Assembly (NCBI GenBank): GCA_002414865.1
Contig: DIAQ01000095.1
Coordinates: 21,430-85,429 of the forward strand
Direction of reading: 5' to 3'
Source: a candidate division Hyd24-12 bacterium UBA5074
GTDB lineage: Bacteria > Fermentibacterota > Fermentibacteria > Fermentibacterales > Fermentibacteraceae
DNA: 64,000 nucleotides
The position numbers and the translations under genes were made by a program. The notes under the pieces are model-generated. The model searched no databases, was not told the origin of the DNA, and saw only the letters and a list, made by a program, of their open reading frames with translations. Shown in pieces: positions 21,786 through 53,380 of the stretch; position 1 is the stretch's first letter; every line of letters starts with the position of its first letter.

Positions 21786-23030
21786 ATGGGAGGAACTCGC
21801 TTGGACGCGCTCAGGACGCTCACGGACAGAGGGCTGGTCTACCAGGTCACCGACGAGGAGAATCTGTCGGAGATCCTGTCAGCCGGCAGGGTGACTTTCT
21901 ATGTCGGATTCGACGCCACGGCCTCCAGCCTCCACCTCGGTCACCTGGTCCCTCTCATGGCGGCGAGCTGGCTGCAGAAGGCGGGGCACCGTCCCCTGAT
22001 CGTCGTAGGCGGGGCCACAGCACTCGTAGGCGACCCCTCCGGGAGGAGTTCGGAGAGGACGCTCGAGGCGCGCGAGACAGTCGAGGACTGGGCGGGGAGC
22101 ATCGCGGCGCAGCTTCGGCGCTTCCTCGACTTCGGCCCCGATGCGGCGCAGCTCCTCGACAACTCCGCCTGGCTCCTGGGGCTCGACTACATCGGCTTCC
22201 TCCGCGACATCGGCAGACATTTCAGCGTCAACCGCATGCTCACCGCCGACTCGGTGAAGAGCAGGCTCGAGAAGGGGCTCTCCTTCCTCGAGTTCAACTA
22301 CATGCTACTGCAGTCCTATGATTTCCTCTGGCTGAACCGGAGCTGCGGCTGCACACTCCAGATCGGCGGCGCCGACCAGTGGGGCAACATAGTCGCGGGC
22401 ATCGACCTCATCAGGCGCGTGGAGGGCGGCGAGGCCTTCGGGCTCACCTGCCCCCTCGTAACGGCATCCACGGGTCAGAAGATGAGCAAGTCGATGCCGG
22501 GCGGAGCGATCTGGCTGGATCCCTGCATGACCTCGCCATATGACTACTACCAGTTCTGGATAAACGTGGACGACCGCGACGCGATCTACTTCATGAAGCT
22601 CTACACATTCATGGAGATCGCGGAGATCGAGCGCTACTCGGCCTTGCGCGGCGAGGACACCAGGGAGGTCAAGCAGCGGCTGGCGTGGGAGGCCACGGCG
22701 ATCGTCCACGGAGCGCCCGAGGCCGACAAGGCGAGAGACGCCTCCTCGGCCCTCTTCGGGGGAACCGGGGACGGGGCTTCCGTGCCATCCCTGGAGATGC
22801 CTGCCTCGAAGCTCGCCGAAGGCATCTCCTACACCGACCTGTTCGTCGAGACCGGCCTCTGTTCGAGCAGGAGCGAGGTCCGGCGGCTCTGCAGCCAGAA
22901 CGGCCTGCATGCAGGCAGCCGCAGCATCTCGAACCCCGACGGATGCCTCGCGCCGGAGGATCTGACCTCGGGCTCGATACTCCTCAGAGCCGGCAAGAAA
23001 CGCTACTTCAGGGTCGTCTTCTCGGAGTAG
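21786..23030 (+). CDS. tyrS: Tyrosine--tRNA ligase.
   Basis: HIGH-type motif SSLHLGHL, KMSKS motif and a C-terminal S4 domain. Confidence 0.95.
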   Translation: MGGTRLDALRTLTDRGLVYQVTDEENLSEILSAGRVTFYVGFDATASSLHLGHLVPLMAASWLQKAGHRPLIVVGGATALVGDPSGRSSERTLEARETVEDWAGSIAAQLRRFLDFGPDAAQLLDNSAWLLGLDYIGFLRDIGRHFSVNRMLTADSVKSRLEKGLSFLEFNYMLLQSYDFLWLNRSCGCTLQIGGADQWGNIVAGIDLIRRVEGGEAFGLTCPLVTASTGQKMSKSMPGGAIWLDPCMTSPYDYYQFWINVDDRDAIYFMKLYTFMEIAEIERYSALRGEDTREVKQRLAWEATAIVHGAPEADKARDASSALFGGTGDGASVPSLEMPASKLAEGISYTDLFVETGLCSSRSEVRRLCSQNGLHAGSRSISNPDGCLAPEDLTSGSILLRAGKKRYFRVVFSE

Positions 23031-24033
23031 CCGGGCCGGGGCCGGACGTCCCTATGAGTATCGCGTCGTAGGCGGCGTCGGCCTGGTGCACCTGCCTGCC
23101 CTGCAGGTCGCGCACATCGTCCTCGACCACCAGGCTCCTCCCGTATCTGGGCACGGTGCCCTCCAGGAACAGAGCGTAGTCGGAAGGGAAGACCCCGAGC
23201 CCGTCGAGTCTCGACCCTGTCTCGTTCACGACGGCTGTGGCCGCCTTTTCGAACATGCCGAGATCCTTGAGGTAGGTCCGGACCTCCTCCATGCCTTCGC
23301 CCGAGCTGTCCCTGGCTATGACGATCCGTTCGAGATCGACGGCTCCGCCCCCGCCGCCCACCCGGTACAGGCCCTCCTCCGGAGAGCCCCCGACCGGCAC
23401 CGCCGAGCCTGAGCGCGCCACCGGCAGCCGATCGGACCCGCCCGCCACGAGCAGGCACATCTCCCCTTCGTCCCCCCCTCCGCCACCGGAGTCGAAGAAC
23501 GCGAAGCATGCCATCGCAGCGAGGGCAAGGACTCCGGCGACAGGCAGGAGCCGCGCGGAGACCCGTCTCCGGGGGCGGCCGGGGGCCGGCACGGCATGGG
23601 ATGCAGGCTGGATGACCAGCACGGGCGACCTGCCGTCGTCCTCCAGCATACCCAGCGCTTCGCCGGGTTCGGAGGGAGGCTGGTCCGAGGCCGGCTGACG
23701 AGGCATCCCGCCCGCCCATGCCATGATCATGGCACCCTCGGCGAGAGGTGTGCGCGAGGAGGATGCCGATTCCCTGGCAGGCTCCTCCCATGCCGAGGCC
23801 CCCTCGGGGCCCAAAGCCGAGGCTCCCGCGGAACCGGCTCGGAAATACCACATCATGCCGTCGCGGATCACCCCGAAGACCAGCCCCTCAAGCCTCTCCC
23901 TCGGAGGGAGCGCCCCGGCCAGGGACTGCAGGGCGGAGCAGAGATCCTCACCCGGAGGCAGAGTCCTCAGGCCGTCAAGCAGGCCGGCGCAGTAAGAGTA
24001 GGGATTCGAGCCTCCCCCTCCCAGCGCCGCCAC
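23008..24033 (-). CDS. Hypothetical bitopic membrane protein: a cytoplasmic N-domain of about 175 aa, one TM helix and an extracytoplasmic C-domain of about 140 aa.
   Basis: The 341-aa ORF has protein-like composition (W/Y/F/K/D present), unlike the R/G-rich alternative ORFs in the region. TM segment LLPVAGVLALAAMACFAFF. Its 3' end overlaps tyrS convergently by 23 nt. No recognisable motif. Confidence 0.4.
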   Translation of the reverse strand: MAALGGGGSNPYSYCAGLLDGLRTLPPGEDLCSALQSLAGALPPRERLEGLVFGVIRDGMMWYFRAGSAGASALGPEGASAWEEPARESASSSRTPLAEGAMIMAWAGGMPRQPASDQPPSEPGEALGMLEDDGRSPVLVIQPASHAVPAPGRPRRRVSARLLPVAGVLALAAMACFAFFDSGGGGGDEGEMCLLVAGGSDRLPVARSGSAVPVGGSPEEGLYRVGGGGGAVDLERIVIARDSSGEGMEEVRTYLKDLGMFEKAATAVVNETGSRLDGLGVFPSDYALFLEGTVPRYGRSLVVEDDVRDLQGRQVHQADAAYDAILIGTSGPGPATPRRRP

Positions 24034-24137
24034 GAAAAGGGCGCCGGAAGGATGGGAGGCCCAGGCCGCGCAGCCTGATCCCGTCCTCGTCGAGCCACGG
24101 GTCTGCCGGGAGGCGTCTGCCGGGAGCCCTCGAGTCT

Positions 24138-24692
24138 CTACCTCGAGCTCCCGGAACCGCTCGAGGACCCGCCCGTGGAGCCTCCCCTGGAGCTGCCGCC
24201 GGTGGAGCCACCCCTCGATGAGCCGCCGCTGGATCCGCTGCGCGAGGAGCCTGAGGAAAGGCCGCTGACCGTCGACTGCAGCGATGCCACCTGGTCCTCG
24301 AGGCCGTCGATCCTGTCCCTGAGGCTGTCCAGCGTGGGTCCCACCTCGGAGATGCCTGCGGACATGATTGCGAGCGACTCCTGTGCCGCGGAAACCATCC
24401 CGCCCATCTCCACGAGCCCTGCGGAGAGCGAGTCGATGGAGGCCAGGGTCTCCTCGAGACGGGCCGAGGCGTCGGGGGAGACATCGAGACCCTGGGCTGC
24501 GAGGGTTTCCTCGATGGTGCCGAGGCGCCTCTCGAGATCGGGCAGATTCACCTCCGGGGAGCTCTGGGCGAGCTCCTCGATGTCGTCCATCCTGCTTGAG
24601 ACGTCGTCTATCTTTGTATTGAGCTGGTCAATTCCCGGAACGCTGCATCCGAGTGCCAGGACCAGAGGCAGCAGAATGACGAGAATGCGCAT
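24138..24692 (-). CDS. Coiled-coil lipoprotein with a Gly/Ser-rich C-terminal tail.
   Basis: Lipobox MRILVILLPLVLALGCS. Heptad-like IDDVSSRMDDIEELAQ...LEDQVASLQSTVSGL. Tail SGSSRSGSSGGSSRGGSTGGSSRGGSTGGSSSGSGSSR. Confidence 0.65.
   Translation of the reverse strand: MRILVILLPLVLALGCSVPGIDQLNTKIDDVSSRMDDIEELAQSSPEVNLPDLERRLGTIEETLAAQGLDVSPDASARLEETLASIDSLSAGLVEMGGMVSAAQESLAIMSAGISEVGPTLDSLRDRIDGLEDQVASLQSTVSGLSSGSSRSGSSGGSSRGGSTGGSSRGGSTGGSSSGSGSSR
24141..24260 (-). repeat. Imperfect tandem repeat of about 24 nt coding for a GGSSRGGST low-complexity tail.
   Basis: Repeated units gccgccggtggagccacccctcga / gcccgtggagcctcccctggagct on the plus strand, inside the 3' end of the lipoprotein CDS. 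Confidence 0.45.
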
Positions 24693-24721
24693 GCAGGACC
24701 CTCCGTTTCGTCGACCGGCGT

Positions 24722-25273
24722 TCAGGGCCGGTCTTCAGAGAAGACTTCGGCGGTATAGGTGAACAACTCGACTCCCTCGGATTTCCAGGCTGCGGGAGGG
24801 AGGCCCGCCTTCAGACAGACATGGCCGAGCAGCTGGTCCCTGTCCCAGCCTTCCTCGCGCGCGACCTGCGGCAGCAGCGTGCCGGATCTGGCGCCCCTGC
24901 GGATGTAGACTCCGTGATCACCTGGAACCACATCGGACGGCCTCGCAGGCTTCATCGGGCTCAGGACCGAGATCTCGACGAACAGACTCCCGATCTCCGA
25001 CGGGCGGACGGGCGGGAATCTCGGATCCTCGACCGCGGCAGCGGCGGCCATCCTGACAACCGTCTGGCCCAGAGTGCCCATCGGGGTGAAGCAGCCGATG
25101 CATCCCCTCAGCTCGGAACCCTGTTTCGTCCGGAGAGTCACGAAAGCCCCGAGATGTGCACCAAGCGCCCCCTCGGACGGAGCGGCCGGCAGGGCGGAGC
25201 CCCGCGAAGCAGCCTCCACCGAGCTCCGGGCAGCCGCCAGGAGCGTGATCCGCTCGGAAGGGCAGAGGCTCAC
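24722..25273 (-). CDS. AMMECR1 domain protein (AmmeMemoRadiSam system protein A-like).
   Basis: AFVTLRTKQGSELRGCIGCFTP...GVYIRRGARSGTLLPQVAREEGWDRDQLLGHVCLKAG. GTG start at 25273 overlaps the Memo TGA stop (GTGA). The upstream R-rich part of ORF 24722..25864 is rejected. Confidence 0.85.
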   Translation of the reverse strand: MSLCPSERITLLAAARSSVEAASRGSALPAAPSEGALGAHLGAFVTLRTKQGSELRGCIGCFTPMGTLGQTVVRMAAAAAVEDPRFPPVRPSEIGSLFVEISVLSPMKPARPSDVVPGDHGVYIRRGARSGTLLPQVAREEGWDRDQLLGHVCLKAGLPPAAWKSEGVELFTYTAEVFSEDRP

Positions 25274-26088
25274 GAAGCCAGCCTCCGGGTGCAGCCCGCC
25301 ATGTACCCTACCACCGCGGATTCGTCCCCCGAGGCTGCGGCCGACGTGTCGTATGCCGTTATGCCGGCCTCGAAGGGCCCGCTCTCGGCGGCCCAGGCCA
25401 GGAGGGTCATCACGGGTCCGGCTCCGCAGGCTTCGGCCCGCCCCCGGGTGAGCAGGCCCTCGATCGCGGAGGGATCGCCGGTGGCGAAGGCCTCGCCGAA
25501 CCTTCCGTCGAGCTGCTTCGCCGTTTCGATCGGATGGTAGTGCGAGAGATCGCTGGATGCGACGAACAGCATCCTTCCCTGTCCCTCGCAGGCGGTGACG
25601 AGCGACGAGGCGAGGGATCGGGAGAACGATGCGGAGACCGATCCCTGGAGGATGGGCACGATCATGGCGAAGGGCCATCTGACCTGGACGAAGGGGATCT
25701 GGACCTCCTCGGCATGCTCCATGGAATGGGCTCTGGGTTCGTATCCGAAGCCGAGCTCGGCGAGGCGGGCGACGATCGTCCTGTTGACCCTCGCCGCGCC
25801 CAGAGGAGTTCTGTATGCCTCTCCCCCGTACACGGAAGCTCCAGCCACGGGAAACCGGTGGCATGGCGCGACCACCAGGACCGTCTGTATGTCCGCGGGG
25901 GCGCTTGCGAATGCAGCGCCGGCGATCCTCCCCGAGTAGACATATCCAGCATGCGGACTGACGATGCCTGTAACCCCCTCGTCGGAGACCGGGCCGGCAG
26001 CCGAGAGGTAGGACTCCACCTCCCTGCGGAGGCGTCCGGGATCGGCGGTGTAGAACATCCCCGCCACAGCGGGCCTCCGCTCAGCCAC
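25270..26088 (-). CDS. MEMO1-family protein (AmmeMemoRadiSam system protein B-like).
   Basis: AGMFYTADPGRL...GIVSPHAGYVYSG...SSDLSHYH. Confidence 0.85.
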   Translation of the reverse strand: MAERRPAVAGMFYTADPGRLRREVESYLSAAGPVSDEGVTGIVSPHAGYVYSGRIAGAAFASAPADIQTVLVVAPCHRFPVAGASVYGGEAYRTPLGAARVNRTIVARLAELGFGYEPRAHSMEHAEEVQIPFVQVRWPFAMIVPILQGSVSASFSRSLASSLVTACEGQGRMLFVASSDLSHYHPIETAKQLDGRFGEAFATGDPSAIEGLLTRGRAEACGAGPVMTLLAWAAESGPFEAGITAYDTSAAASGDESAVVGYMAGCTRRLAS

Positions 26089-26818
26089 CCCGGCCCTCCA
26101 TCATGTCCTCCATGCCGTACAGACCTGGCGGTCTCTCCATGACGAACGCCGCCGCCTCCAGGGCTCCGAGTACGAACAGGCGCCGTCCGGATGCCCTGTG
26201 GCCGAGGAGCATCCTCTCCCCTTCGAGAAGGATGTGGACCTCGTGGTCGCCCGCCACGTCTCCTCCCCTCACGGAGTGGACGCCCACCTCGTCACGCTCG
26301 CGAGGGCCCCGCCGTCCGCTTCGCCCCATGACGGGGACCGCCTGACGTCCGGTCCCACCCGACCAGCTCTCGAGGAGCTTCTGGGCGGTTCCGCTGGGAC
26401 TGTCGACCTTGCCACGATGGTGGACCTCGACGATCTCGAGGTCCGCCCTGTCCCCGAGGAGCCTCGCTGCCTCGAATACCAGCCTCCCGAGCACATGGAT
26501 CCCGAGGCTCATGTTCGGGGAGTGGAAGACAGGGCGGTCGACCGCCCATGCTGCGAGCAGGGCTCTCTCGGCCGGTCCCAGCCCCGTCGTCCCGCTCACG
26601 AGAGCGGCCCCTGATCCCACCAGGAGCGCCCCGAGCGACTCGAATGCCGAAGGCGTCGAGAAATCGAAAACCACCTCGACTGCGGAGGGCAATGTGCCGG
26701 CGGGCTCGGCCAGGGATATGTCGTAGCATGCCGTGATGTCGAAGCCTCGCTCGGGGGCTTCCTGCCTGAGAAGCCGGCCCATGCGCCCCTCGGAACCGAA
26801 GACGGCCGCCTTCGTCAA
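26081..26818 (-). CDS. dapB: 4-hydroxy-tetrahydrodipicolinate reductase.
   Basis: Signature EIVEVHHRGKVDSPSGTA and N-terminal KAAVFGSEGRMGR. TTG start at 26818 overlaps the dapA TGA stop (TTGA). The R-rich N-terminal part of ORF 26081..27556 is rejected. Confidence 0.85.
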   Translation of the reverse strand: MTKAAVFGSEGRMGRLLRQEAPERGFDITACYDISLAEPAGTLPSAVEVVFDFSTPSAFESLGALLVGSGAALVSGTTGLGPAERALLAAWAVDRPVFHSPNMSLGIHVLGRLVFEAARLLGDRADLEIVEVHHRGKVDSPSGTAQKLLESWSGGTGRQAVPVMGRSGRRGPRERDEVGVHSVRGGDVAGDHEVHILLEGERMLLGHRASGRRLFVLGALEAAAFVMERPPGLYGMEDMMEGRGG

Positions 26819-27693
26819 GCGATCCCCGCCTGTTCCATCGCGAGCCTCAGGGCTCCCGTCAGATCCTGCCTCATCGGCGTGAGGGGCAGTCGGAGCTCGT
26901 TCCTGATGCGGCTCGTAATCGCCAGCGCCTGCTTGACCGGTATGGGGTTGCTCTCGAGGAAAAGGGCGTTCATCAGGGGGAACAGCCTCTCGTGGATGGC
27001 CCTGGCCCTGACGAAGTCCCCTTCGAGGGCGAGTCCGGCCATCCTCGCGGTGTCGGCCGGCGCCAGGTTGGACAGCACGGAGACGACCCCCTCTGCGCCC
27101 AGGGCCATGGCCGCCAGGGCCAGATGGTCGTCTCCGCTCAGGATCGACATGCCGCAGAGGGATCGGATCGCCGTCACCCGTTCGACGGCTCCGGCGGCAT
27201 CCTTCACGGCGACGATGCGGGGATGCTCGGCGAGGAGCGCCAGCGTCCCGGGCGTCATGTTGGTGCCTGTCCGGCCCGGGACGTTGTAGACCATCACCGG
27301 GCATTCGACGGCGTCGGCCACCGCTCTGTAGTGCTCCACCTGACCCTCTGCCGTGGGCTTGTTGTAGTAGGGTGTTATGACGAGGATGCCGTCCACCCCC
27401 AGCGAGGAGGCGGCGCGAGAGAGCTCCACGGTGGCAGCGGTGTCGTTCTTCCCCGTCCCCGCGATCACCGGGACGCGCCCCGCGGCGACGCGCAGCACCG
27501 TGCGGACCACCTCCAGATGCTCGTCCCGCCCCAGGGTGGCGGCCTCGCCGGTGCATCCACAGGCGACGAGGCCGTCTATGCCCTCAGCGACCTGCCAGTC
27601 GACGAGCCGTTCCAGGGAGGGCAGGTCGAGCCTGCCGTCCGCGAAGGGGGTGACGAGTGCGGTCCAGGCTCCCCGCGGCCGGGAAAGGGTCAT
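26815..27693 (-). CDS. dapA: 4-hydroxy-tetrahydrodipicolinate synthase.
   Basis: TALVTPF...[17 protein letters not shown]...PYYNKP, typical of DapA. Confidence 0.9.
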
Positions 27694-28439
27694 TTCTTGG
27701 CCGATTCGAAGAACGGCTTCAGGAATTCTATCGGCACCGGGAAGATCGTGGTCGAGTTGTTCTCCACAGCTATCTCCGACAGCGTGTGGAGGTAGCGGAG
27801 CTGGAGGGCTATCGGATGCTGAGCAATGATGTCGGCGGCGTCTGCAAGCTTCTGGGAGGCCTGGAACTCGGCCTCGGCGTGGATGATCTTGGCCCTGCGG
27901 TCACGCTCGGCCTCGGCCTGGCGGGCCATGACGCGGCGCATCTCCTCGGGCAGGTCGACATGCTTGACTTCGACCATGGTGACCTTGATGCCCCACGGAT
28001 CGGTGAGCCTGTCGAGTATCTCCTGCAGCTTGGCGTTTATCTGCTCCCTGTTCGAGAGCAGCTCGTCGAGAGAGGTCTCGCCCAGGACGCTCCTGAGGGT
28101 GGTCTGCCCGAGCTGGCTGGTCGCGTAGAGGTAGTTCTCGACCTCGATGATGGCCTTCACCGAGTCCATCACCCTGAAGTAGACCACGGCGTTCACCTTC
28201 ACGGAGACGTTGTCCCTGGTGATGACGTCCTGGGGCGGGACATCCATGGTCACCACGCGGAGGTCGACCCGGCGCATCTGGTCGATGATCGGCCAGATGA
28301 CGACGAGGCCCGGACCCTTCACGCCGATCACCTTGCCCAGCCTGAACACGACGCCCCTCTGGTACTCGCGGAGGACCCTGAGGGACGTCAGGAGAATGAA
28401 CGCGAAGATGATGACGAGTATCGTAACGGGGCCCATCAT
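27690..28439 (-). CDS. SPFH/band-7 (stomatin-like) membrane protein.
   Basis: ATG at 28439 with GGGAGG Shine-Dalgarno. N-terminal TM helix, then an SPFH core [14 protein letters not shown]...[15 protein letters not shown] and a coiled-coil C-terminus. Confidence 0.9.
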
Positions 28440-28801
28440 TGACCTCCCTGGTTCCTGTTGTTCTGACTGACGCCGTCGGCCGAGGCGCAGGAATCGTCGC
28501 CGACAGGGATCACATCCAGCACGAATTCGCTGAGTCCCCTGATCTTGACGGTCATGCCGTCCTGGAGCCGGGAGCTGCTCCTGCACCACCAGAGCTCGCC
28601 CCTGACCTCGACCACCCAGCGGTTGCGGAACCCGGGGCGACGGCTGATGACTCCGGTCAGCCCTATCATGCCCTCGTTCCCCGTCTGCACGGGGAGGTGC
28701 TGCGCCTTGAAGCCCAGCCATGCCAGGAACAGGGCGAAGGCTCCGCCGGCGATGCCTGCCGGGAGCCAGAAGCCCTCCGGAAGCGTGTACATGATGATCA
28801 C
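28436..28801 (-). CDS. NfeD-like membrane protein (short form), the operon partner of the SPFH protein.
   Basis: Two N-terminal TM helices plus a C-terminal OB-like domain [39 protein letters not shown] overlap with the SPFH start. Confidence 0.75.
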
Positions 28802-29901
28802 ATCCTCCAGTCGGATGGTGTCTCCACCCCCTTCAGCTTGAGCTGAAGAGCGGTGGGATTGGAAGACGCCGCGAGGGCGGTCTCCTCTGTGATGCTGCCG
28901 TCCGCGAGGAGCCTCAGCAGGGCCATATCGAAGCTCTGCATGCCGTATTGCGGCCCGCTCGTCTCGATCGAGTCCCTTATCATGTAGGTCTTCTGGGGGT
29001 CGATGATGCAGGTCTGGATGAGCGCAGTGTGCACCATCACCTCGGCGGCGAGCACAAGCCCGGCGCCGCTCCTGTGAGGCAGCAGCCTCTGGCTGATCAC
29101 GGCCTTGATCAGTCCCCCGAGCTGCGTGCGAACCTGCTTCTGCTGGTGGGACGGGAACATGTCGATGATCCTGTTGATGGTTTCGGGGGCGTCCGAGGTG
29201 TGGAGTGTGCTGAGGACCAGGTGTCCGGTCTCGGCCCCCGTGAGAGCCACGGCCGCGCTCATCGAGTCGCGCATCTCGCCGATCAGGATCACGTCGGGAT
29301 CCTGCCGGAACACTGCGCGGAGGGCGCTGGCCCAGCTCTCGGTGTCGATGCCGACCTCCCGCTGGCTGATGCTGGAATTGCGGTCGTGGTGGAGGAACTC
29401 GATGGGATCCTCGATGCTGACGATGTGGCAGCGGCGGTTCTCGTTGATGTAGTCGATCATGGAGGCGAGCGTCGTGGACTTCCCGCTGCCGGTGGCCCCG
29501 GTCACGAGGACGAGGCCCCTCTGCTCCAGGGCGATGCGCTTCACGATCTGGGGCAGGCCGAGGCTGTCGATTTCAGGGATCTCGAATGGGATGCGCCGCA
29601 TTACGATGGCGGGATTGCCACGGGCGCGGAAGATGTTGACTCTGAACCTGGCCTTGCCGGCCAGGGAATGCGCTATGTCCAACTCCTGGCCTGCGTCGAA
29701 GGCGGCCTTCTGGGCGGGGGTCGTGAGCTCCTCGACCAGCTTGCCGACGTGCTCGGCGAGAAGAGGACCCAGACCCTCGGCGGGGATCATGGATCCGGAC
29801 TGGCGCAGGAGCGGCGGGCTCCCGGCCTTGAAATGGATGTCGCTCACGTCGTCGGCCAGGAGGATCGAAAGGAGCTTGTCCACCCCCCTGACGTCAGACA
29901 T
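28798..29901 (-). CDS. pilT: Type IV pilus retraction ATPase PilT.
   Basis: ATG at 29901 ([24 protein letters not shown]). Walker [10 protein letters not shown], an AIRH-like [20 protein letters not shown], and the His box. Confidence 0.9.
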
Positions 29902-30457
29902 AGAGCCCCTCCCTGATCGCGTAATCGCACACGGAGCCGGGAGTAAGATAGCGCGCCCCCCTGCCCCGGGCAAACCGTCTCCGCAGCTCGCTCGACGAGA
30001 TGTCCACCCCCGGGATCTCGAAGACCTCGACCCTGGCGAGCAGTTCCGGATCGACCTCCACGGAGCTCCAGCCGGGCCTGGTGGCGGCGGCGAAAGCGGC
30101 TTCGTCGAGGAGCTCCGGGTAGCGCATCCATGTCGTGAGCTCGCAAAGGCTGTCCATGCCCATGAGGAACAGGACGCCGCCGAGCTTCTCCCTGGCTGTT
30201 CGGAGGAGCCTCCATGTGTACGACGGCTCGCCGGGGGTCTCCATGTCGCGGACCTCGAACCGGGGATCCGCTTCGACGGCGAGGACGGTCATCGCCATCC
30301 TGTGCTCGAACGGGCTCATGCCTCCGTTCTTGTGCGGAGGCACCCGGGCCGGCACGAAGACGACCTTCTCCAGATCGAAGCGGCTCATGGCCTCGTCGGC
30401 CAGGATCAGGTGCCCGTAGTGCGGAGGATCGAACGTCCCTCCGAGAAGGCCTGTCAT
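29894..30457 (-). CDS. nadD: Nicotinate-nucleotide adenylyltransferase.
   Basis: GGTFDPPHYGHL (H/T-x-G-H) motif. 187 aa. Confidence 0.9.
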   Translation of the reverse strand: MTGLLGGTFDPPHYGHLILADEAMSRFDLEKVVFVPARVPPHKNGGMSPFEHRMAMTVLAVEADPRFEVRDMETPGEPSYTWRLLRTAREKLGGVLFLMGMDSLCELTTWMRYPELLDEAAFAAATRPGWSSVEVDPELLARVEVFEIPGVDISSSELRRRFARGRGARYLTPGSVCDYAIREGLYV

Positions 30458-31218
30458 GTGGAGGAGATCTGCTCCAGGAGATCGAGGATCCTCTCGCGGT
30501 CCTCGCCGCTCAGATCGTCCTCGTCGAGGGCTCTCTGGAGGTTCGTCCTCGCGGAGTAGGTATTCCCCGTGGCGCTGTAGAGCTCACCCATGGCGTAGAG
30601 GATGCGCCCGCGGCATCCGAAGCCGGAGTAGTCCTCCAGAGCCTCCCTGTAGTAGAGGAGCGCGGCGTCGGTAAGACCTCTCCGGGCGTAGAAGCGGCCG
30701 ATGAACAGGGAGCGCATGGCGAGCTGGGCGTCGCAGCTGTCTGAGAGGGCTGTCACCTGGGACATCAGATCGGAGCCCGGGAAGGACTCCTGGAACTTCG
30801 CCAGCTCCTCCCTGGCCGCGAACACCTGCGTCAGGTCCCTGCGGTAGTCTCTCTTCTGCAGCCAGAAGACCCTTGCCAGACCGAACTGGGAGTCGTCGGC
30901 GAGGCCGCTTCGCGGGTACTCGGCGAGCACCCGGCGGAAGTTGAACTCGGCTTCGGGCCACAGCCTCTGCTTCGCCTCGGCGACAGCCAGCCTGTAGAGG
31001 TAGAGGTCCGTGTCGGTGGCTCCGGGATAATCGAAGAGGATCTCGGTGTAGAGAACCTCTGCGTCGTGCCAGGTACCGGCCTGGAAACACCTGTCGGCCT
31101 GCGCTCCAAGCTCTTCGAGCGGGAGCCCGGACCGGATTCCGGCGCTGCCGCAGCCCGCAGCCAGCAACGCGAGGAGAACTGCGATTCGCTTGGTCATGCT
31201 GAACGCCGCGCCCTTCAT
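30454..31218 (-). CDS. BamD/ComL-like TPR outer-membrane lipoprotein.
   Basis: Lipobox AVLLALLAAGCGS. TPR-like helices with FGLARVFWLQKRDYRRD. The ATG at 31218 overlaps the upstream TGA stop (ATGA); an alternative ATG exists at 31197. Confidence 0.7.
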   Translation of the reverse strand: MKGAAFSMTKRIAVLLALLAAGCGSAGIRSGLPLEELGAQADRCFQAGTWHDAEVLYTEILFDYPGATDTDLYLYRLAVAEAKQRLWPEAEFNFRRVLAEYPRSGLADDSQFGLARVFWLQKRDYRRDLTQVFAAREELAKFQESFPGSDLMSQVTALSDSCDAQLAMRSLFIGRFYARRGLTDAALLYYREALEDYSGFGCRGRILYAMGELYSATGNTYSARTNLQRALDEDDLSGEDRERILDLLEQISST

Positions 31219-32192
31219 GGCAGTAGGTACATCAGGGAGTCGCGCCTGGCCTCGGCGATCGCCGCCGCCGGGCTCGAGAGGCCGGGAGCCGCAGTGCAGG
31301 CCGAACGGTACCAGTCGAGCGCTCCGGCAGGATCGCCGGCGGCTTCCGCCATCCCGCCGAGCTGGACGGCAGCTTCCACGCGATCGCCCGCGAAGTCGGA
31401 GGACCAGACTTCGAGCAGCTTCTCCCTGGCCAGCGAGATCCTCCCCTGCTGCAGGTCCTCCCCGGCAAGGGAGAGGAGCAGGCGCATGCGGCGCTCCCGC
31501 AGCTCGGGAGCCATGCCGCCCGCCCGGTCGAGCTCGGTCAGCACCTCGAGCTCATCGGATGCCCGGTCGGTGAGAGGGAACAGCCGGGCCTCGGCTCCGA
31601 GGACCAGTCCGCGCAGATCGGTCCTCCTCAGGGGGATCCTGCCCAGCTCCACCAGGAACTCCCCGGCGGCCGCCCGCAACATGCTGTCGCCTTCCCCGGC
31701 CAGCGCGACGGAGTCGGGGACAGATGCCACGAGAGCGAGGTGCCCGGAGGCGAACACCCCTCTGAAAAGCCATTCGTCCTCGAAGAGGCCTCCGGCGCCC
31801 GAGCATGCCAGGGTGCTCTCGAAAGCCGCGAAGGCCTGGAGCGAATCCCTGTCCCTGGCCATCTCCCAGCCCAGCCGCCTCCATAGCTCCCCAAGCCTCT
31901 CGCGGTCGGTGAACGTGGAGTCGGCCTGGAGGATGGAAAGAGCCTCCATGGTCTTCTGTCTGAAGATCCGGCTCCTCTCCGCTCCGCTTGCGAGCAGGGC
32001 CGTCTCGGCGTATTCGGCCACCAGCCCGGCGTCGGGGGTGTCGGTGGCTTCCAGGGCCTCCTCGTAGAGGGCCACGGCCTCCGCGAAGTGCCCGGACTGC
32101 CTGAGGATGCGGGCCTCCTCCAGGGCCGAGGAGCCATCCGGTCCGCCGCACGCGGTCAGCAGCAGCAGGGCTGCCGCAGGGAGCTTCCTCAT
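31215..32192 (-). CDS. Hypothetical TPR-like lipoprotein.
   Basis: ATG at 32192 overlaps the upstream TGA stop (ATGA). Lipobox MRKLPAAALLLLTACGG. Helical repeats AEAVALYEEALEA. The upstream R-rich part of ORF 31215..32432 is rejected. Confidence 0.55.
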   Translation of the reverse strand: MRKLPAAALLLLTACGGPDGSSALEEARILRQSGHFAEAVALYEEALEATDTPDAGLVAEYAETALLASGAERSRIFRQKTMEALSILQADSTFTDRERLGELWRRLGWEMARDRDSLQAFAAFESTLACSGAGGLFEDEWLFRGVFASGHLALVASVPDSVALAGEGDSMLRAAAGEFLVELGRIPLRRTDLRGLVLGAEARLFPLTDRASDELEVLTELDRAGGMAPELRERRMRLLLSLAGEDLQQGRISLAREKLLEVWSSDFAGDRVEAAVQLGGMAEAAGDPAGALDWYRSACTAAPGLSSPAAAIAEARRDSLMYLLP

Positions 32193-32788
32193 TCGGCCCT
32201 GCTGGAGTAGAAGAGGTAGATGAGGCTCGCGACCACTCCCGTCACGACGAGGGGCTCGAGTATCCCTCCGCCGGCCTCCTGCGGCTCTCCTCCGGTGAGC
32301 CACTCCTGGCCGGAGGATCCCTGCAGCTCTGCGAGATCGGAGGCGGGGATCCGGTCCTGGTCCGATCCGCCGCAGCGCCATGACCTCCGGACCGATGCGG
32401 AGCCGTCGAGGAGTTCCGCGGAGATCTCGCACCTGACGGCCCTGTCGATGCGGCTGCCGCCCAGGAACCAGGATCTGCCGGCATCGTCGAGGCTCACGGA
32501 GAGCTCCATGACGCGGAGCCTGAGCACGGTTCCGGGATCGCCCTCGGCCGCCCGCTCTCCCAGGACCGGCACGCCGGACTCCACCAGGAGGTTCGTGGCC
32601 ACCTGCTGGACGAGCCAGTTCCCCTGGAAGTCGCCCGCCAGCTCGAGCCTGGCCGATTGGACGCCCGCATCCGAGAGGGAATCGGTCAGACCGGCAAGAG
32701 ACTCCATAACAACCTGTTCAGCCATCTCGAGATTCGTGGGATGCCCGGATACACCGGTGAGCGCGATAGTCAGGAGTAACGCCAGCAT
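32189..32788 (-). CDS. Hypothetical secreted/membrane protein.
   Basis: Signal peptide MLALLLTIALTGVSG and a C-terminal hydrophobic segment LVVTGVVASLIYLF. No recognisable motif. Confidence 0.45.
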   Translation of the reverse strand: MLALLLTIALTGVSGHPTNLEMAEQVVMESLAGLTDSLSDAGVQSARLELAGDFQGNWLVQQVATNLLVESGVPVLGERAAEGDPGTVLRLRVMELSVSLDDAGRSWFLGGSRIDRAVRCEISAELLDGSASVRRSWRCGGSDQDRIPASDLAELQGSSGQEWLTGGEPQEAGGGILEPLVVTGVVASLIYLFYSSRAE

Positions 32789-32791
32789 TTC

Positions 32792-34111
32792 CTATCCATC
32801 CTCTTTCGAGCGGGTTTGGCAAGAAGCATCGGAAGGCCGGGGCGCCCTGTCAATTCCTCGCGGTGCGGGGGTGACCGTCATATCGAGCCCTGTGAACTCG
32901 TCCACGCGGCAGGAGTAGACCTTCCCCGGCGTCACCCTCCTGCTGAATGTGCAGCGGCCGTCCACGGCCGGAGCGTCGAATCTCCCATGGCCGGTCCTGG
33001 ATGTCTCTGCGAGCACCTCCAGGGGTCCCAGGCCCAGCCTCGCGGCCCAGGCAGCCGCCGCGGCATCCCCGATCGAGCCGAGAACGGAGAGTCGATAGGC
33101 GGTTACATCCCCGGGAATCCTCGAAGCGGCCCTCGAGTGCTCGAGAGTGCCTTCCTCGTCGTAATACGGAAAGGCCACGAGGCTCCTGAGAGCCCTCGCG
33201 CCCGAGAGGAATTCACACAGGTCGTCGAAGTCGGCATCCCCCTCGCCGGGGTACCCCGCGATCACGGTGGCCCTGAGGGCGATGTCGAGGCCTGCCGAGT
33301 CCACCAGATCCAGGATCCGCTCGAGTTTCTCCCTGCCGTAGGGCCTCCCCATCCTGCGGAGCAGGTCCCCGCTGGAGTGCTGGACAGGCAGGTCGAGCCA
33401 GGGCATGACGTTGTGCCTGCGGGCGAACAGCCCGGGGAGCTCCTCCGGGAAGTGCGCGGGATGGATGTAGTAGAGCCTCCACCAGACGGATTCCCACGTT
33501 CCTGCCAGCTCGTCGGCGAGCTGCACGAGACCGGTCCCCCCGTCGCGCCACATCGAGGAATCCTGAGCCACGAGCCCTATCTCCGACGCCCCCGACTCCA
33601 CCATCTCACCGGCCCGTGCGAGGATCGTCTCCCTCCGCTCGGGGCGGAAAGGTCCCCTGATGGAAGGTATCGTGCAGTAGGCGCAGCGGTTGTCGCATCC
33701 GTCAGCGATCCTCAGGTAGCGGAGGATCCGGCCTTCCAGCGGCAGCTGGCCACAGGGCCCGCCTTGGGTGCCGAGGTAGCCTGACAACCTGGAGAACTCT
33801 CCCGGCAGGAGGAGGAGGTCGACGGATTCCAGCCCGCCGCTCCCGTCGTCCCGGAACCTTCCGGGAAGGCACCCGGCCAGGACGAGACGCCGCCCGACGC
33901 GCCGGTTCCTCCATTCCTCGGCCTGGTAGAACGCCTCTAGGGACTCCTCCACCGCGGGGGCGATGAAGGCACAGGTGTTGAGGAGCAGCAGGTCCGAGGA
34001 CTCGGGATCGTCGGAGACGGCCCAGCCCGCGCGGGAGAAGATCCCCGCGAACAGCTCCGACTCGACGGAGTTCTTGGGGCACCCGAGCGTCCTTATGCAG
34101 GCCGTGGGCAA
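32792..34111 (-). CDS. rimO: Ribosomal protein S12 methylthiotransferase RimO (MiaB-family MTTase).
   Basis: MTTase N-domain IRTLGCPKN...LLLNTCAF, radical SAM motif CDNRCAYCTIP and a C-terminal TRAM-like domain. Confidence 0.85.
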   Translation of the reverse strand: MPTACIRTLGCPKNSVESELFAGIFSRAGWAVSDDPESSDLLLLNTCAFIAPAVEESLEAFYQAEEWRNRRVGRRLVLAGCLPGRFRDDGSGGLESVDLLLLPGEFSRLSGYLGTQGGPCGQLPLEGRILRYLRIADGCDNRCAYCTIPSIRGPFRPERRETILARAGEMVESGASEIGLVAQDSSMWRDGGTGLVQLADELAGTWESVWWRLYYIHPAHFPEELPGLFARRHNVMPWLDLPVQHSSGDLLRRMGRPYGREKLERILDLVDSAGLDIALRATVIAGYPGEGDADFDDLCEFLSGARALRSLVAFPYYDEEGTLEHSRAASRIPGDVTAYRLSVLGSIGDAAAAAWAARLGLGPLEVLAETSRTGHGRFDAPAVDGRCTFSRRVTPGKVYSCRVDEFTGLDMTVTPAPRGIDRAPRPSDASCQTRSKEDG

Positions 34112-34113
34112 CT

Positions 34114-34695
34114 TCAGACGTCCCCGGGCCTGACCACGGAAAACCCCTCCGGCACGCTCAGGGCGAACCGGCCCCCGGGGACGGTCCTCCGCGTCGTCGG
34201 GGAGCCCAGGACCCAGGTGGTGCGGTTGCCGTTGGAGTCGGTCGTGCAGAGGCTGCGGGGCAGGCTGTCGGAGGAGGTGAACTCCACGGTCATCCCGGTG
34301 ATGCCATCTCCCAGATCTCCGGCGAGGACCACGGTGACAGTGTCGCCGCTCTCCGACACGGATTCCACCAGCGACGGGTCGGAGTCGAGATCGAGGAAGG
34401 CGAGCAGGCTGGAACCCTCCCCGCCCGAGAGCAGGACCTCCCGGGAGGCGGGCTCGACCGTGTACACCGTCTCGCCGTCGCAGCCTACGATGCGGCCCGC
34501 CGGGTCTTCATAGTCGAGTCTGAAGAGGTCGGGCGAAGCCAGGCTGATATGCCCGGAGCTGATCTCCTCGTCCCGTGTGAGAGCCCAGTAGTCGGTCTGC
34601 ACGAAGTCGGCCTCCAGGAAGGCGGAGGCCGACAGCCTGGCCGACAGCGGATCGAGAGGAGAGGCCGTCGCCAGGATCAGGATGGCGATATGCAT
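34114..34695 (-). CDS. LolA-like outer-membrane lipoprotein carrier protein.
   Basis: Signal peptide MHIAILILATASP. FLEADFVQTDYWALTRDEEISSGHISLASPDLFRLDYEDPAGRIV fits the LolA fold signature. Confidence 0.65.
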   Translation of the reverse strand: MHIAILILATASPLDPLSARLSASAFLEADFVQTDYWALTRDEEISSGHISLASPDLFRLDYEDPAGRIVGCDGETVYTVEPASREVLLSGGEGSSLLAFLDLDSDPSLVESVSESGDTVTVVLAGDLGDGITGMTVEFTSSDSLPRSLCTTDSNGNRTTWVLGSPTTRRTVPGGRFALSVPEGFSVVRPGDV

Positions 34696-34713
34696 GTATC
34701 GAGCCTTTCCGGA

Positions 34714-35340
34714 TCAGTTCTGACCGGGCATGGGCGCCGAGCTGCCCACCACCGCGTCGCTTCCCACGACGACCACGAGGCCGGAATGGCCAGGCAGGAT
34801 GGCTGATGTGATCTGCCCGCCGGGCTGGACCGGTATCGTCACGGGCTGCGTGAGCCAGTTCGCCAGTGTGTCGGCGAGGACGAGAGCCTCGTCCCTCAGC
34901 CCGTCAGGATAGAGAACCAGCGTCATGTCCGGGGATCCGTCGTCCTCCACCACCGTGGCGTCGTAGCCCGCGGCGGAAAGGGCCGCTGCTATCCGCGTCA
35001 TGCGGGGGGAGCTGGCCGCCAGCCCCACGACCGCAACCGAGGGCCCGGGCAGCGGAGGCGTGCCCGAGGAATCGGCGGACGGGCCTCCGAGGTCGGAGTC
35101 GATCCTCCTTATGGCCAGCCGGGCCTCGCCCACGAGAGGCGAGTCAGGAAACCCGTAGACGACGGAGTTGAATTCCTCGCGTGAACGCGAGAGGCTGCCG
35201 CGGAAATAGAGCTGGCTCGCCCTCGCGAATGTGGCCATCTCGTCGCGGCCCTGCACCAGTCCGCCTTCGTCGGTCCCCGGTCCTCCGGAGCCGCAGCTGC
35301 ACAGCAGCGCTGCAAGAGCGAGGGCCTGCAATCGCGACAT
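34714..35340 (-). CDS. Lipoprotein with a LytR_C-like C-terminal domain.
   Basis: Lipobox MSRLQALALAALLCSCGSG. C-terminal PSVAVVGLAASSPRMTRIAAALSAAGYDATVVED...TLVLYPDG...ALVLADTL. Confidence 0.6.
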   Translation of the reverse strand: MSRLQALALAALLCSCGSGGPGTDEGGLVQGRDEMATFARASQLYFRGSLSRSREEFNSVVYGFPDSPLVGEARLAIRRIDSDLGGPSADSSGTPPLPGPSVAVVGLAASSPRMTRIAAALSAAGYDATVVEDDGSPDMTLVLYPDGLRDEALVLADTLANWLTQPVTIPVQPGGQITSAILPGHSGLVVVVGSDAVVGSSAPMPGQN

Positions 35341-37613
35341 CAGCCTTCCTCCGTCCCGCGGGGCGTTTCGTCCCTCTTCCCGTAGACTTCGCGGCGCTTG
35401 CCGCCCTGGAAGGGCCCTATCACGCCCTCCTCCTGGAGCAGCTCGATCAGCCTGGCGGCCCTCGGGTAGCCCAGCCCGAGCTTCTTCTGGAGGAAGGTCA
35501 CCGAGGCCGTCTTCGAGTTGATGACGAGATCCCTCGCCGTGTCGAGCAGCTCATCCGCTTTTACATCGCCGGCCTGCGGAGTGTTCCCCGGATCCCCCTC
35601 CCGGATGGAGAACCCGTGCTCCGTCTTCAGCGCCTGATCCTTCCAGAATTCGACGATGCTCCTGGCCTCGGAGGTGGACACGTTGGAGCCGTGGATCCTT
35701 ATCGGCTCGGATGAAGTGGCCTGGAGGAACAGCATGTCACCTCTCCCGAGCAGCTTCTCCGCTCCGTTGGCATCGAGGATGGTCCTGGAGTCCGTCTTCG
35801 ACATGACGTTGAAGGCTATCCTGGAAGGGAAGTTGGCCTTTATCACGCCCGTGATGACATCGACGGAGGGCCTCTGGGTGGCGACGACGAGATGGATGCC
35901 AACGGCCCTGGCCTTCTGGGCAAGCCTGCAGATCGGCAGCTCCACCTCGTTGCCGGAGGTCTGCATCAGGTCGTACAGCTCGTCGATGAACAGGACGATG
36001 TACGGCATGGGAACCGCATCGGGCGGCGGGGCGGTGTTGAACTCGTCGATGGTCCTCGCCCTCGCCTTCTCCAGAGTCCTGTAGCGGTTGTCCATCTCTA
36101 CGACGAGGGATTCCAGGAGCTGCCTGGCCTTCTTCGGATCGACGATGACGGGGGCCCAGAGGTGGGGCACGTCCTCGTAGATTGCCAGCTCGACCCTCTT
36201 CGGATCGACCAGGGCCAGCCTCACCTGCTCGGGCTTCCTCGTCATCAGGAGAGTGCAGATCATGCTGTGGATGCTGACGCTCTTGCCCGAGCCGGTGGCC
36301 CCGGCCACGAGCAGGTGCGGAGCCTCGGTGAGGTCGGTCACGAACGGCTCGCCTTCGAGCTTCTTGCCGAGGGCCAGGGGAAGCTTCACGCCCGGTGGCA
36401 CGGCCTGGAGGATCTCACTGAGGAAGACGGGCTCGGGGTTGGAATTGGGCACCTCCACCCCCACCGCATCCCTGCCCGGGATGGGCGCCAGGATGCGTAT
36501 CCTCTTGGCCTTGAGCGCAAGGGCGAGGTCGTCCGAGAGGCCGAGGATGCTGTTCACGCGGACGCCCTGGCCCGGCTTCAGCTCGAACCGGGTCAGCACG
36601 GGGCCGGCCCTGTGTCCGGTCACCCTGCACGAGACGCCGAAGTCGGCGAGCTTCTTCTCCAGAAGGGCTGCCTTCTCGAGCAGCTCGGACTCGGGCACGC
36701 CCCTGGGAGCACCCCTCGAGGGCGCCTCGAGCATGTCGAGCTTCGGCAGGGTCGCCCTGGAGGTGAACGCCTGTACCGCAGGCAGGCCCGCAGACAGAGC
36801 GCCCTCCGGGGACCCGGGGGCACGCACAGGCTCCTCTGCGCGCTCCTTCAGGGGCTCCCTCGCCGGCGCCGCCGACCTGGCTGGAAACCTGTCCGCGGAG
36901 TCCGCCGGGGGCAGAACAGGAGCGCTCCCCGCAATCTCCGGGAGAAGGTCCCTGTCGCTGTCGGCGAGACCCTGGATGATGATGGGCGGGGTATCCTGGC
37001 GCTCAGGCCTGTCCCAGGCATGGCGCTCCATGAAAGGCGGCGGCGCAGGAGGGGCCGGGGTCTCCCCGTCCCTCCCGGGCCTGGCCCTGGGCTTCGGAGC
37101 GGCGCTCTTCGCCGCCCTTCCCAGGAGGAGCAGATCATCCGCCAGGTCCCAGCCTGTGAAGATGACGAGCGCCGTTATGAGGCATGCGAGCAGGATGAGA
37201 TAAGCCACCAGGGATCCGGCGGACTTCTCGAGGAGCTCGACCGTGCTGTGCGCGAGCAGGCCGCCCGGTCTGCCGGCGATGGCGGGGTTGAAGCGGCTGC
37301 CGACCATGTCCGTGAGGGCGGCCAGGAAGTAGCCGGTCACGCCTGTCCCGAGGATGGTCGTGAAGCCTCCCCGGAGCGCTGACGCGCTGAGGGTCCTCAC
37401 GGCGCACATCAGAAGCAGTGCCGGGAGGAGGAAGGACAGGAATCCGGCGCTTCCATAGAGGGCCTGCCTCACCTGGGCCCCCACCCTGCCCCAGGGGGGC
37501 ACGACGAGGAGGACGAGCAGGGAGATCCCTGTGAAGATGCAGGCGACCACGACTATGCTGCGCAGGCTGCTGCGTCGGCGCCTGGCCCTGGACCTGCTCC
37601 GCGCGCGTGCCAT
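35340..37613 (-). CDS. ftsK: DNA translocase FtsK/SpoIIIE.
   Basis: N-terminal TM helices, a Pro/Ala-rich linker, the motor domain [19 protein letters not shown] and a C-terminal gamma (winged-helix) domain. ATG at 37613 overlaps the HU-gene TGA stop (ATGA). Confidence 0.9.
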   Translation of the reverse strand: MARARSRSRARRRRSSLRSIVVVACIFTGISLLVLLVVPPWGRVGAQVRQALYGSAGFLSFLLPALLLMCAVRTLSASALRGGFTTILGTGVTGYFLAALTDMVGSRFNPAIAGRPGGLLAHSTVELLEKSAGSLVAYLILLACLITALVIFTGWDLADDLLLLGRAAKSAAPKPRARPGRDGETPAPPAPPPFMERHAWDRPERQDTPPIIIQGLADSDRDLLPEIAGSAPVLPPADSADRFPARSAAPAREPLKERAEEPVRAPGSPEGALSAGLPAVQAFTSRATLPKLDMLEAPSRGAPRGVPESELLEKAALLEKKLADFGVSCRVTGHRAGPVLTRFELKPGQGVRVNSILGLSDDLALALKAKRIRILAPIPGRDAVGVEVPNSNPEPVFLSEILQAVPPGVKLPLALGKKLEGEPFVTDLTEAPHLLVAGATGSGKSVSIHSMICTLLMTRKPEQVRLALVDPKRVELAIYEDVPHLWAPVIVDPKKARQLLESLVVEMDNRYRTLEKARARTIDEFNTAPPPDAVPMPYIVLFIDELYDLMQTSGNEVELPICRLAQKARAVGIHLVVATQRPSVDVITGVIKANFPSRIAFNVMSKTDSRTILDANGAEKLLGRGDMLFLQATSSEPIRIHGSNVSTSEARSIVEFWKDQALKTEHGFSIREGDPGNTPQAGDVKADELLDTARDLVINSKTASVTFLQKKLGLGYPRAARLIELLQEEGVIGPFQGGKRREVYGKRDETPRGTEEG

Positions 37614-46534: not shown

Positions 46535-46553
46535 GCACCGGGGTGCGCGGGCG

Positions 46554-49470: not shown

Positions 49471-49482
49471 CTTCTCCCCCTC

Positions 49483-53367: not shown

Positions 53368-53380
53368 GTCCACCACCCGC

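Follow-up and report, generated by a model that had tools for sequence, protein, structure and literature searches.

The locus raises a simple question: where the Memo-family and AMMECR1-family genes of a three-gene system directly follow dapA and dapB, with each start overlapping the preceding stop, and where the radical SAM gene of the same system (AmrS) is missing from their side, does the arrangement tie the system to lysine/DAP biosynthesis? To our knowledge, the Memo–AMMECR1–AmrS system has no known function and no activity is known for the bacterial Memo or AMMECR1 protein, and a firm metabolic link would be valuable. The answer to which the gene identities, the overlaps, the conserved synteny and the frequency of AmrS-unlinked pairs all lead is an ordinary one. 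The four genes very likely belong to a vertically inherited Fermentibacterota housekeeping string in which Memo–AMMECR1 sits as an intact module behind dapAB, and not to a functional partnership with lysine/DAP synthesis.

In the window (the whole 64-kb stretch of DNA analysed), the chain consists of four genes, read in the order dapA, dapB, Memo, AMMECR1:

26815–27693, minus strand: dapA, 4-hydroxy-tetrahydrodipicolinate synthase, 292 aa, ATG start (TIGR00674 330 bits, cut-off 206; PF00701)
26081–26818, minus strand: dapB, 4-hydroxy-tetrahydrodipicolinate reductase, 245 aa, TTG start (TIGR00036 182 bits, cut-off 122; PF01113 and PF05173)
25270–26088, minus strand: Memo-family gene (AmmeMemoRadiSam system protein B), 272 aa, GTG start (TIGR04336 224 bits, cut-off 26; PF01875 158 bits)
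24722–25273, minus strand: AMMECR1-family gene (AmmeMemoRadiSam system protein A), 183 aa, GTG start (TIGR04335 159 bits, cut-off 99; PF01871 175 bits)

Each gene scores above its own NCBIfam cut-off in a profile search, which bears out the identities proposed in an earlier note made from the sequence. The look-alike aldolase profiles HpaI, NanA and KdgD all fall far below their own cut-offs on dapA, whose 'YNVPGRTG' and 'VAVKDAAG' stretches we take to be the DHDPS catalytic Tyr/Arg and Lys motifs. DapB carries both its N-terminal PF01113 and its C-terminal PF05173 domain. A GGAGG precedes both GTG starts, lying 8–12 nt upstream in the case of Memo. In AMMECR1, the 'LRGCIG' motif is recognisable, with L-GCIG invariant in 7/7 aligned sequences, six of which have R at the second position and one K. 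The metal ligands of human MEMO1 are H49, H81 and C244 (PMC11081632); H46 and H77 of the window's Memo align with the two histidines, and its C221 lies within 'EACGAGP' and is invariant across 16 homologues. As the His-His-Cys metal site and the LRGCIG motif are both kept, Memo and AMMECR1 are probably both active.

Read directly from the sequence, the dapA/dapB junction is TTGA, with the TTG at 26818 and the TGA ending at 26815; the dapB/Memo junction is GTGGCTGA, an 8-nt overlap with the GTG start at 26088; and the Memo/AMMECR1 junction, which places the A and B genes side by side, is a 4-nt GTGA. Upstream, the chain is extended by a Band7/SPFH gene whose stop overlaps the dapA start by ATGA. 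Consecutive same-strand genes are thus joined by ATGA, TTGA, GTGGCTGA and GTGA, the kind of stop/start overlap by which translational coupling is recognised. Of the chain as originally described, the overlaps at all junctions stand, as do TTGA and GTGA; the ATG given for the dapB/Memo junction has to be replaced by GTG. Automatic callers on contigs of the same sequence differ over two of the starts, giving 233 or 245 aa for DapB and 265 or 272 aa for Memo. A later dapB start (ATG 26782) would drop the conserved N-terminal motif, a nucleotide-binding 'VFGSxGRMG' of GxxGxxG type that is present in 5/5 aligned Fermentibacterota DapB sequences, the window's N-terminus aligning with the four others; the TTG alone retains it. 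A later Memo start (GTG 26067) loses the near-invariant R4 and P6, which only GTG 26088 retains. Because only the overlapping dapB and Memo starts keep these conserved N-terminal residues, they are, judged by alignment, the correct ones.

Three sets of loci put the chain into context. Firstly, GTDB genomes were scanned with a Memo alignment, the matches listed including one Fermentibacterota genome (L008). Secondly, JGI metagenomes were searched with the window's Memo as query, giving an independent sample of 80 loci; the peptide HAGYVYSG is universal and, among the matches listed, the best identity is 41%, with no close relative. Thirdly, six Fermentibacterota lineages were compared: the window, L002, L008, L091/L092, L173 (Ca. 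Aegiribacteria sp.) and L174 (Ca. Fermentibacter sp.).

The missing AmrS can be considered first. A six-frame CxxxCxxC scan of the window returned three plausible radical SAM open reading frames:

32792–34111, minus strand: RimO/MiaB-type radical SAM methylthiotransferase with CDNRCAYC (TIGR01125 228 bits, TIGR00089 223 bits; no TIGR04337 match)
38210–39706, minus strand: HydE/PylB-like radical SAM protein fused to shikimate kinase, 498 aa (TIGR03956 238 bits over residues 20–318; PF01202 over residues 345–484)
40481–41716, minus strand: B12-binding radical SAM protein (PF02310 and PF04055; best NCBIfam match TIGR04072, 207 bits, below cut-off)

The fused HydE-like–shikimate kinase frame is a single gene call on 17 contigs. 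As stand-ins for AmrS these genes were rejected, being of the RimO, HydE/PylB-like and B12-binding subfamilies and none of them matched by TIGR04337. The earlier note was right that the window's radical SAM genes belong to subfamilies other than AmrS, but it counted two and missed the RimO-like gene at 32792–34111. Its statement that no AmrS gene adjoins the pair is confirmed: the scan and the profile search together found no TIGR04337-type gene in the 64-kb window, and the same gene order recurs in at least five independent assemblies.

Could Fermentibacterota have lost AmrS, or never have had it, with Memo–AMMECR1 working without a radical SAM partner as in eukaryotes? This is unlikely, though of the alternatives considered here it fares best. 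In its favour, no AmrS was found in the window or in the 12–21 kb around the pair in the five other Fermentibacterota lineages. A wider search took the AmrS of the closest non-Fermentibacterota locus (L010; TIGR04337, 387 bits) into a collection of 5.8 billion proteins, where the named matches among the best 120 and their cluster members came from Eisenbacteria, WOR-3, Omnitrophica, Thermodesulfobacteriota, Syntrophaceae, Deltaproteobacteria and Planctomycetaceae, and no Fermentibacteria-named AmrS appeared in the best 120 of more than 8000 candidates. However, those best 120 are all at least 61% identical to the query. Between phyla, AmrS sequences share about 60% identity, and a typical cross-phylum copy, a Fermentibacterota one included, would therefore fall outside the list. 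The regions examined around the pair, moreover, amount to about 1–3% of a genome. Fermentibacterota are strict anaerobes, and there is no oxygen-related reason for them to lose a radical SAM enzyme.

The surveys of other phyla also speak against a loss. Among the matches listed whose flanks measure at least 5 kb on both sides of the locus, AMMECR1 adjoins Memo in 35/42 GTDB and 20/25 JGI loci, and for these pairs AmrS was sought within 5–10 kb using probe sequences confirmed as TIGR04337 (294–632 bits). It was absent nearby from 25/35 GTDB and 14/20 JGI pairs among the matches listed, or about 70%. The partners can also be joined more closely, with Memo and AMMECR1 fused in L005 and L010, and a single open reading frame spanning AmrS, Memo and AMMECR1 in L048. 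A pair without an adjacent AmrS is therefore the majority bacterial layout, and the missing neighbour in the window is no anomaly. Most likely, Memo and AMMECR1 have an AmrS partner whose gene lies at some other place in the genome, apparently the situation in most pair-bearing bacteria. As a by-product, this rough figure (about 70% of adjacent pairs without AmrS within 5–10 kb, in each of two independent samples) means that future scans should not treat the lack of an adjacent AmrS as anomalous.

The position behind dapAB has to be read against the genes that surround it. Gene calls were taken from L088, a contig of the same sequence (window coordinate = 37694 minus L088 coordinate), and combined with Pfam families:

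23008–38098, minus strand: co-directional string of 18 genes
28436–28792, minus strand: NfeD-like gene, preceding the Band7 gene
27690–28436, minus strand: Band7/SPFH (stomatin-like) gene (PF01145 135 bits)
24138–24692, minus strand: gene for a lipoprotein-like coiled-coil protein, 184 aa, with an N-terminal 'LALGC' lipobox-like signal and a Ser/Gly-rich tail

The string runs HU-like, FtsK, hypothetical, LolA, RimO-like, hypothetical, TPR, BamD/YfiO, NadD, PilT, NfeD-like, Band7, DapA, DapB, Memo, AMMECR1, lipoprotein-like, hypothetical. Its genes overlap by 1–8 nt at 11/17 same-strand junctions (38098 to 23008), with remaining gaps of no more than 29 nt except for the last, and in L002 and L091 the share of overlapping junctions at the equivalent places is about half. 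A Rfam scan found no riboswitch splitting the string. Nor was any terminator-like or sigma-70-like site found from 22.8 to 38.2 kb on the minus strand, the sigma-70 consensus being one that may not be the phylum's own. A run of at least 18 genes would probably give rise to one or a few long transcripts, on which 1–8 nt overlaps could let terminating ribosomes reinitiate on the next gene. With overlaps usual along the whole string, those within the chain are no mark of special coupling; they probably reflect general genome compaction and not a coupling of the pair in particular to lysine/DAP synthesis. Some junctions elsewhere in the block are open in relatives, however, while the dapA/dapB/Memo/AMMECR1 junctions overlap in 5/5 lineages with gene calls, which leaves room for a tighter sub-operon.

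The earlier note had reckoned that its reading would fail if the dapAB–Memo linkage were unique to this genome. It is not: the linkage is present in 6/6 Fermentibacterota lineages examined, all with the order Band7-DapA-DapB-Memo-AMMECR1-small protein, and with Memo identity down to 49%. Conservation does not stop there, however. The order of the string as in the window is also found in L002, L008, L091, L173 and L174; lineages with enough flank continue the run from the FtsK or TPR gene to TyrS, Upp, M23 peptidase and Mfd; and the whole FtsK-to-Mfd block, at least 20 kb, is present in all three relatives taken with 10 kb flanks. Since the linkage is conserved together with at least 20 kb of unrelated housekeeping genes, its conservation carries no specific information on a relationship between dapAB and Memo.

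The proposal that the pair acts in or near DAP/lysine or peptidoglycan chemistry, and hence forms one translationally coupled unit with dapAB, is improbable. It draws on two observations. The four genes stay adjacent, with overlapping dapA/dapB/Memo/AMMECR1 junctions in 5/5 lineages with gene calls (in L002, L091, L173 and L174 as in the window); and the wider block has envelope-related members in LolA, BamD, the lipoprotein-like gene and the M23 peptidase. Yet the block also carries NadD, PilT, FtsK, RimO, TyrS, Upp and Mfd, which argues that conservation is not specific to these junctions, and no further DAP-pathway gene was found among the window's open reading frames scanned. Outside Fermentibacterota, neither dapA nor dapB lies near Memo in any of 159 loci among the matches listed, and the neighbours that Memo does have elsewhere (coaBC; frr with a ferredoxin gene; dtd) vary and are mutually unrelated. 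The description of the dapAB context as unusual is thus fair as to its rarity overall, but the significance that it implied is unsupported.

More doubtful still is a combination of the two alternatives. The pair would then do without AmrS and would be kept coupled to dapAB and to a lipoprotein-like gene specific to the phylum, and the reason for the coupling would be a substrate related to DAP, lysine or peptidoglycan. If true, a pair that is uncharacterised and universally distributed would gain its first metabolic context. The lipoprotein-like gene, with a GGAGGG of its own, follows AMMECR1 after a gap of 29 nt. Its product gives weak coiled-coil and Lpp-like profile matches, and homologues of 26–40% identity occupy the same position in the Fermentibacterota loci L002, L008, L173 and L174, with none found in the other 160+ Memo loci among the matches listed.

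That an adjacent amrS was lost by misassembly, or that the overlaps stem from wrong start codons, has next to no probability: callers do differ over where dapB and Memo start, but conserved N-terminal residues demand the overlapping ones, and beyond five divergent relatives with the same gene order, the identical sequence is also present in independently made assemblies (Logan SRR5247040 and SRR5325147; JGI 3300000030 and 3300003432; NCBI GCA_002430795.1).

The preferred reading thus remains that of an intact Memo–AMMECR1 module carried along in an inherited housekeeping string. The locus provides no metabolic link for the system. Its adjacency to dapAB is limited to a single phylum and belongs to a much larger conserved block of unrelated genes. 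In the literature searched, 'AmmeMemoRadiSam' is mentioned only in passing, and the supplements of two Fermentibacteria genome papers contained nothing relevant. The AmmeMemoRadiSam system is what Burroughs et al. 2019, as cited in PMC7159879, call 'Memo-Ammecr1 systems'.

Set beside the AmmeMemoRadiSam system (TIGR04335 for A, TIGR04336 for B and TIGR04337 for the radical SAM protein), the window's pair is alike in having A and B above their cut-offs, the common order of Memo then AMMECR1, and intact signature residues. It is unlike the full system in lacking a TIGR04337 gene within 64 kb, but this is still the family norm, about 70% of pairs among the matches listed being likewise. With human MEMO1 (PDB 3BCZ and 7KQ8), an iron/copper-binding protein of LigB-type dioxygenase fold, the window's Memo shares homology over residues 5–188 (E = 2.5e-16) and the conserved His/His/Cys metal ligands; it differs in being bacterial and in sharing a probable operon with an AMMECR1 gene. 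MEMO1 itself had no dioxygenase activity on any substrate tried (PMC11081632).

As for the surroundings, both bacterial dapA–dapB pairs and long housekeeping strings ('uber-operons') are known arrangements. The locus resembles the former in having dapA and dapB next to each other and overlapping by 4 nt, and the latter in its co-directional run of unrelated essential genes conserved within a phylum. What sets it apart from both is the Memo–AMMECR1 module placed directly after dapB, seen only in Fermentibacterota among the surveyed loci.

The genes dapA, dapB, Memo and AMMECR1 are, on the strength of their NCBIfam and Pfam matches, what the earlier note had claimed, and these identities can be considered beyond doubt (G+C content is 64-70% throughout the window):

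27693-26815, minus strand: dapA (TIGR00674, 330 bits, cut-off 206)
26818-26081, minus strand: dapB (TIGR00036, 182 bits, cut-off 122; both Pfam domains)
26088-25270, minus strand: Memo-family gene (TIGR04336, 'AmmeMemoRadiSam system protein B', 224 bits; PF01875)
25273-24722, minus strand: AMMECR1-family gene (TIGR04335, 'protein A', 159 bits, cut-off 99; PF01871)

Nothing in the sequences of Memo and AMMECR1 suggests decay; the LRGCIG motif is kept in AMMECR1, with L-GCIG invariant across seven aligned sequences. Public Fermentibacterota genomes already list both genes under the name AmmeMemoRadiSam A/B. The closest 91 Memo homologues share 49-66% identity, and among them are proteins to which NCBI gives the names Candidatus Fermentibacteria, Fermentibacter, Aegiribacteria and Fermentibacterales; beyond these, in other phyla, identity is no higher than 44%. 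One contig of NCBI assembly GCA_002430795.1 encodes a protein identical to one from the window. Misassembly was rejected because at least five independent assemblies carry the same sequence.

Read from the sequence, dapA and dapB overlap by TTGA and Memo and AMMECR1 by GTGA, as first described, but the dapB/Memo junction, previously read as 'ATG', is an 8-nt overlap (GTGGCTGA) with a GTG start for Memo. The starts of Memo and AMMECR1 are each preceded by GGAGG, 8-12 nt upstream. The chain reaches further up than dapA, since the stop of the upstream Band7/SPFH gene overlaps the dapA start (ATGA). Published gene predictions on identical sequence (loci L001, L088 and L089) conflict, with dapB of 233 versus 245 aa and Memo of 265 versus 272 aa, the shorter calls using alternative starts:

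26782, minus strand: internal ATG of dapB
26067, minus strand: alternative start of Memo

Both shorter calls were rejected, the first because it loses the nucleotide-binding motif and the second because it loses R4 and P6. TTG 26818 is the only dapB start that keeps the N-terminal 'VFGSxGRMG' common to all five aligned Fermentibacterota DapB proteins, and the Shine-Dalgarno-like GAGGGG ahead of that ATG belongs to conserved Gly-rich coding sequence; likewise, of the Memo starts only GTG 26088 retains R4 and P6, both nearly invariant. As only the overlapping starts keep the conserved N-terminal residues of DapB and Memo, the overlaps are real.

Real as they are, these overlaps are not special within the string to which they belong. 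Mapping the L088 gene calls onto the window defined a minus-strand run (38098-23008) of 18 genes and 17 junctions, 11 of which overlap by 1-8 nt, the gaps being 2-29 nt with a last one of 104 nt; overlap is therefore no mark of a special coupling. The true start lies further upstream, taking in a B12 radical SAM gene, aroE and a radical SAM-shikimate kinase fusion, again with overlapping junctions, and in the divergent relatives L002 and L091 about half of the corresponding junctions overlap. Between 22.8 and 38.2 kb the minus strand showed no terminator-like or sigma-70-like site, and no riboswitch or other Rfam element was found near dapA. Two further members of the run were noted:

37613-38098, minus strand: small protein with an HU-type DNA-binding domain (PF00216) and a glycogen-binding AMPK1_CBM/CBM48-type domain, directly upstream of FtsK (1-nt overlap)
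24138-24692, minus strand: lipoprotein-like protein with a 'LALGC' lipobox-like N-terminus, a coiled coil and a Ser/Gly-rich tail

Homologues of the latter always come next after AMMECR1 in Fermentibacterota (26-40% identity in L002, L008, L173 and L174) and were found in no other Memo locus; its N-terminus weakly matches Lpp/OprI alanine-zipper lipoproteins (E = 2e-4).

The linkage of dapAB to Memo and AMMECR1 is not unique to one genome: the order Band7-DapA-DapB-Memo-AMMECR1-small protein recurs in the relatives L002 (on a contig of 2.52 Mb; Memo identity 50%), L008 (53%), L091/L092 (49%), L173 (Ca. Aegiribacteria sp.) and L174 (Ca. Fermentibacter sp.). The shared order far exceeds four genes, extending to the fetched limits of each locus, with FtsK, LolA, RimO, a TPR protein, BamD, NadD, PilT, an NfeD-like protein and Band7 upstream, and, downstream, TyrS (on the other strand) followed by Upp, an M23 peptidase and Mfd. 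As this block of at least 20 kb consists of functionally unrelated housekeeping genes, its conservation is uninformative on dapAB and Memo specifically. For wider comparison, GTDB species genomes and JGI metagenomes each supplied 80 Memo loci, among the matches listed, in which Memo, AMMECR1, DapA, DapB and AmrS (the TIGR04337-type radical SAM enzyme) were placed by tblastn; outside Fermentibacterota, none of 159 loci had dapAB linked to Memo. The dapAB context, earlier regarded as unusual, is lineage-specific synteny within a larger conserved block.

A six-frame CxxxCxxC scan of the whole 64 kb returned three plausible radical SAM ORFs, none of which matches TIGR04337, so that the reported lack of an adjacent AmrS extends to the entire window:

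32792-34111: RimO/MiaB-type methylthiotransferase
38210-39706, minus strand: HydE/PylB-like domain fused to shikimate kinase
40481-41716, minus strand: B12-binding radical SAM protein

The earlier note had assigned its two radical SAM genes correctly to other subfamilies but overlooked the first of these. The fusion, odd within its aro gene context, is a single 498-aa ORF (TIGR03956, 238 bits, just below the 254.6 cut-off, residues 20-318; PF01202, residues 345-484) that overlaps aroE (39703-40491) by 4 nt, and 17 contigs carry the identical protein as a single gene call. Elsewhere in the window, tRNA genes are absent from the 64 kb, and the following were seen:

42740-45929, plus strand: two HD-GYP-type (HD_5) proteins, upstream of the prepilin-type gene
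45950-46534, minus strand: protein with a prepilin-type N-terminal methylation motif, followed by ORFs of 474, 502 and 1297 aa with no Pfam match (region 45950-53376, a possible pilus or pseudopilus cluster)
63644-64000, minus strand: bacterial class A RNase P RNA (228 bits), running off the window end

Absence of an AmrS neighbour, pointed out in the earlier note, is the norm for Memo-AMMECR1 pairs. The AmrS probe, together with four further AmrS sequences, was confirmed beforehand (TIGR04337, 294-632 bits), and a locus was counted if it had 5 kb or more on each side of Memo. AmrS was missing from the flanks of 25 of 35 adjacent pairs in GTDB genomes (71%) and 14 of 20 in JGI metagenomes (70%), with the same pattern in three loci viewed singly (a spirochaete, a deltaproteobacterium and a Memo-AMMECR1 fusion protein); where linked, AmrS usually lies just upstream of Memo or divergent from it. 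One 881-aa stop-to-stop ORF covers the AmrS, Memo and AMMECR1 matches in L048 (8800-11442, a Bryobacteraceae MAG), a Memo-AMMECR1 fusion is followed directly by AmrS in L010 (9872-11464, an unclassified 'bacterium' MAG, probably Eisenbacteria), and L005 (2681-4087) has a further Memo-AMMECR1 fusion; such fused forms support AmrS, Memo and AMMECR1 being physical partners. That the Fermentibacterota pair works without AmrS is improbable, and keeps what standing it has because the best 120 AmrS matches listed (down to 61% identity, with cross-phylum AmrS at about 60%) did not reach Fermentibacterota; that it does so and also has a real link to DAP chemistry is less probable still.

We consider instead that dapA, dapB, Memo and AMMECR1 form part of a long, compact housekeeping string, probably polycistronic and vertically inherited within Fermentibacterota, whose overlapping stops and starts would permit termination-reinitiation coupling along much of its length. 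Memo and AMMECR1 would be the usual two-gene module, most likely partnered by an AmrS whose gene lies elsewhere in the genome, as seems to hold for most bacteria with the pair. The original observation was essentially correct, its second overlap, radical SAM count and point of origin at dapA aside; the reading of it as out of the ordinary is not supported. The iron/copper ligands of human MEMO1 are H49, H81 and C244 (PMC11081632); in alignment, the positions of H49 and H81 are matched by H46 and H77 of the window Memo, whose C221 is invariant among 16 homologues.
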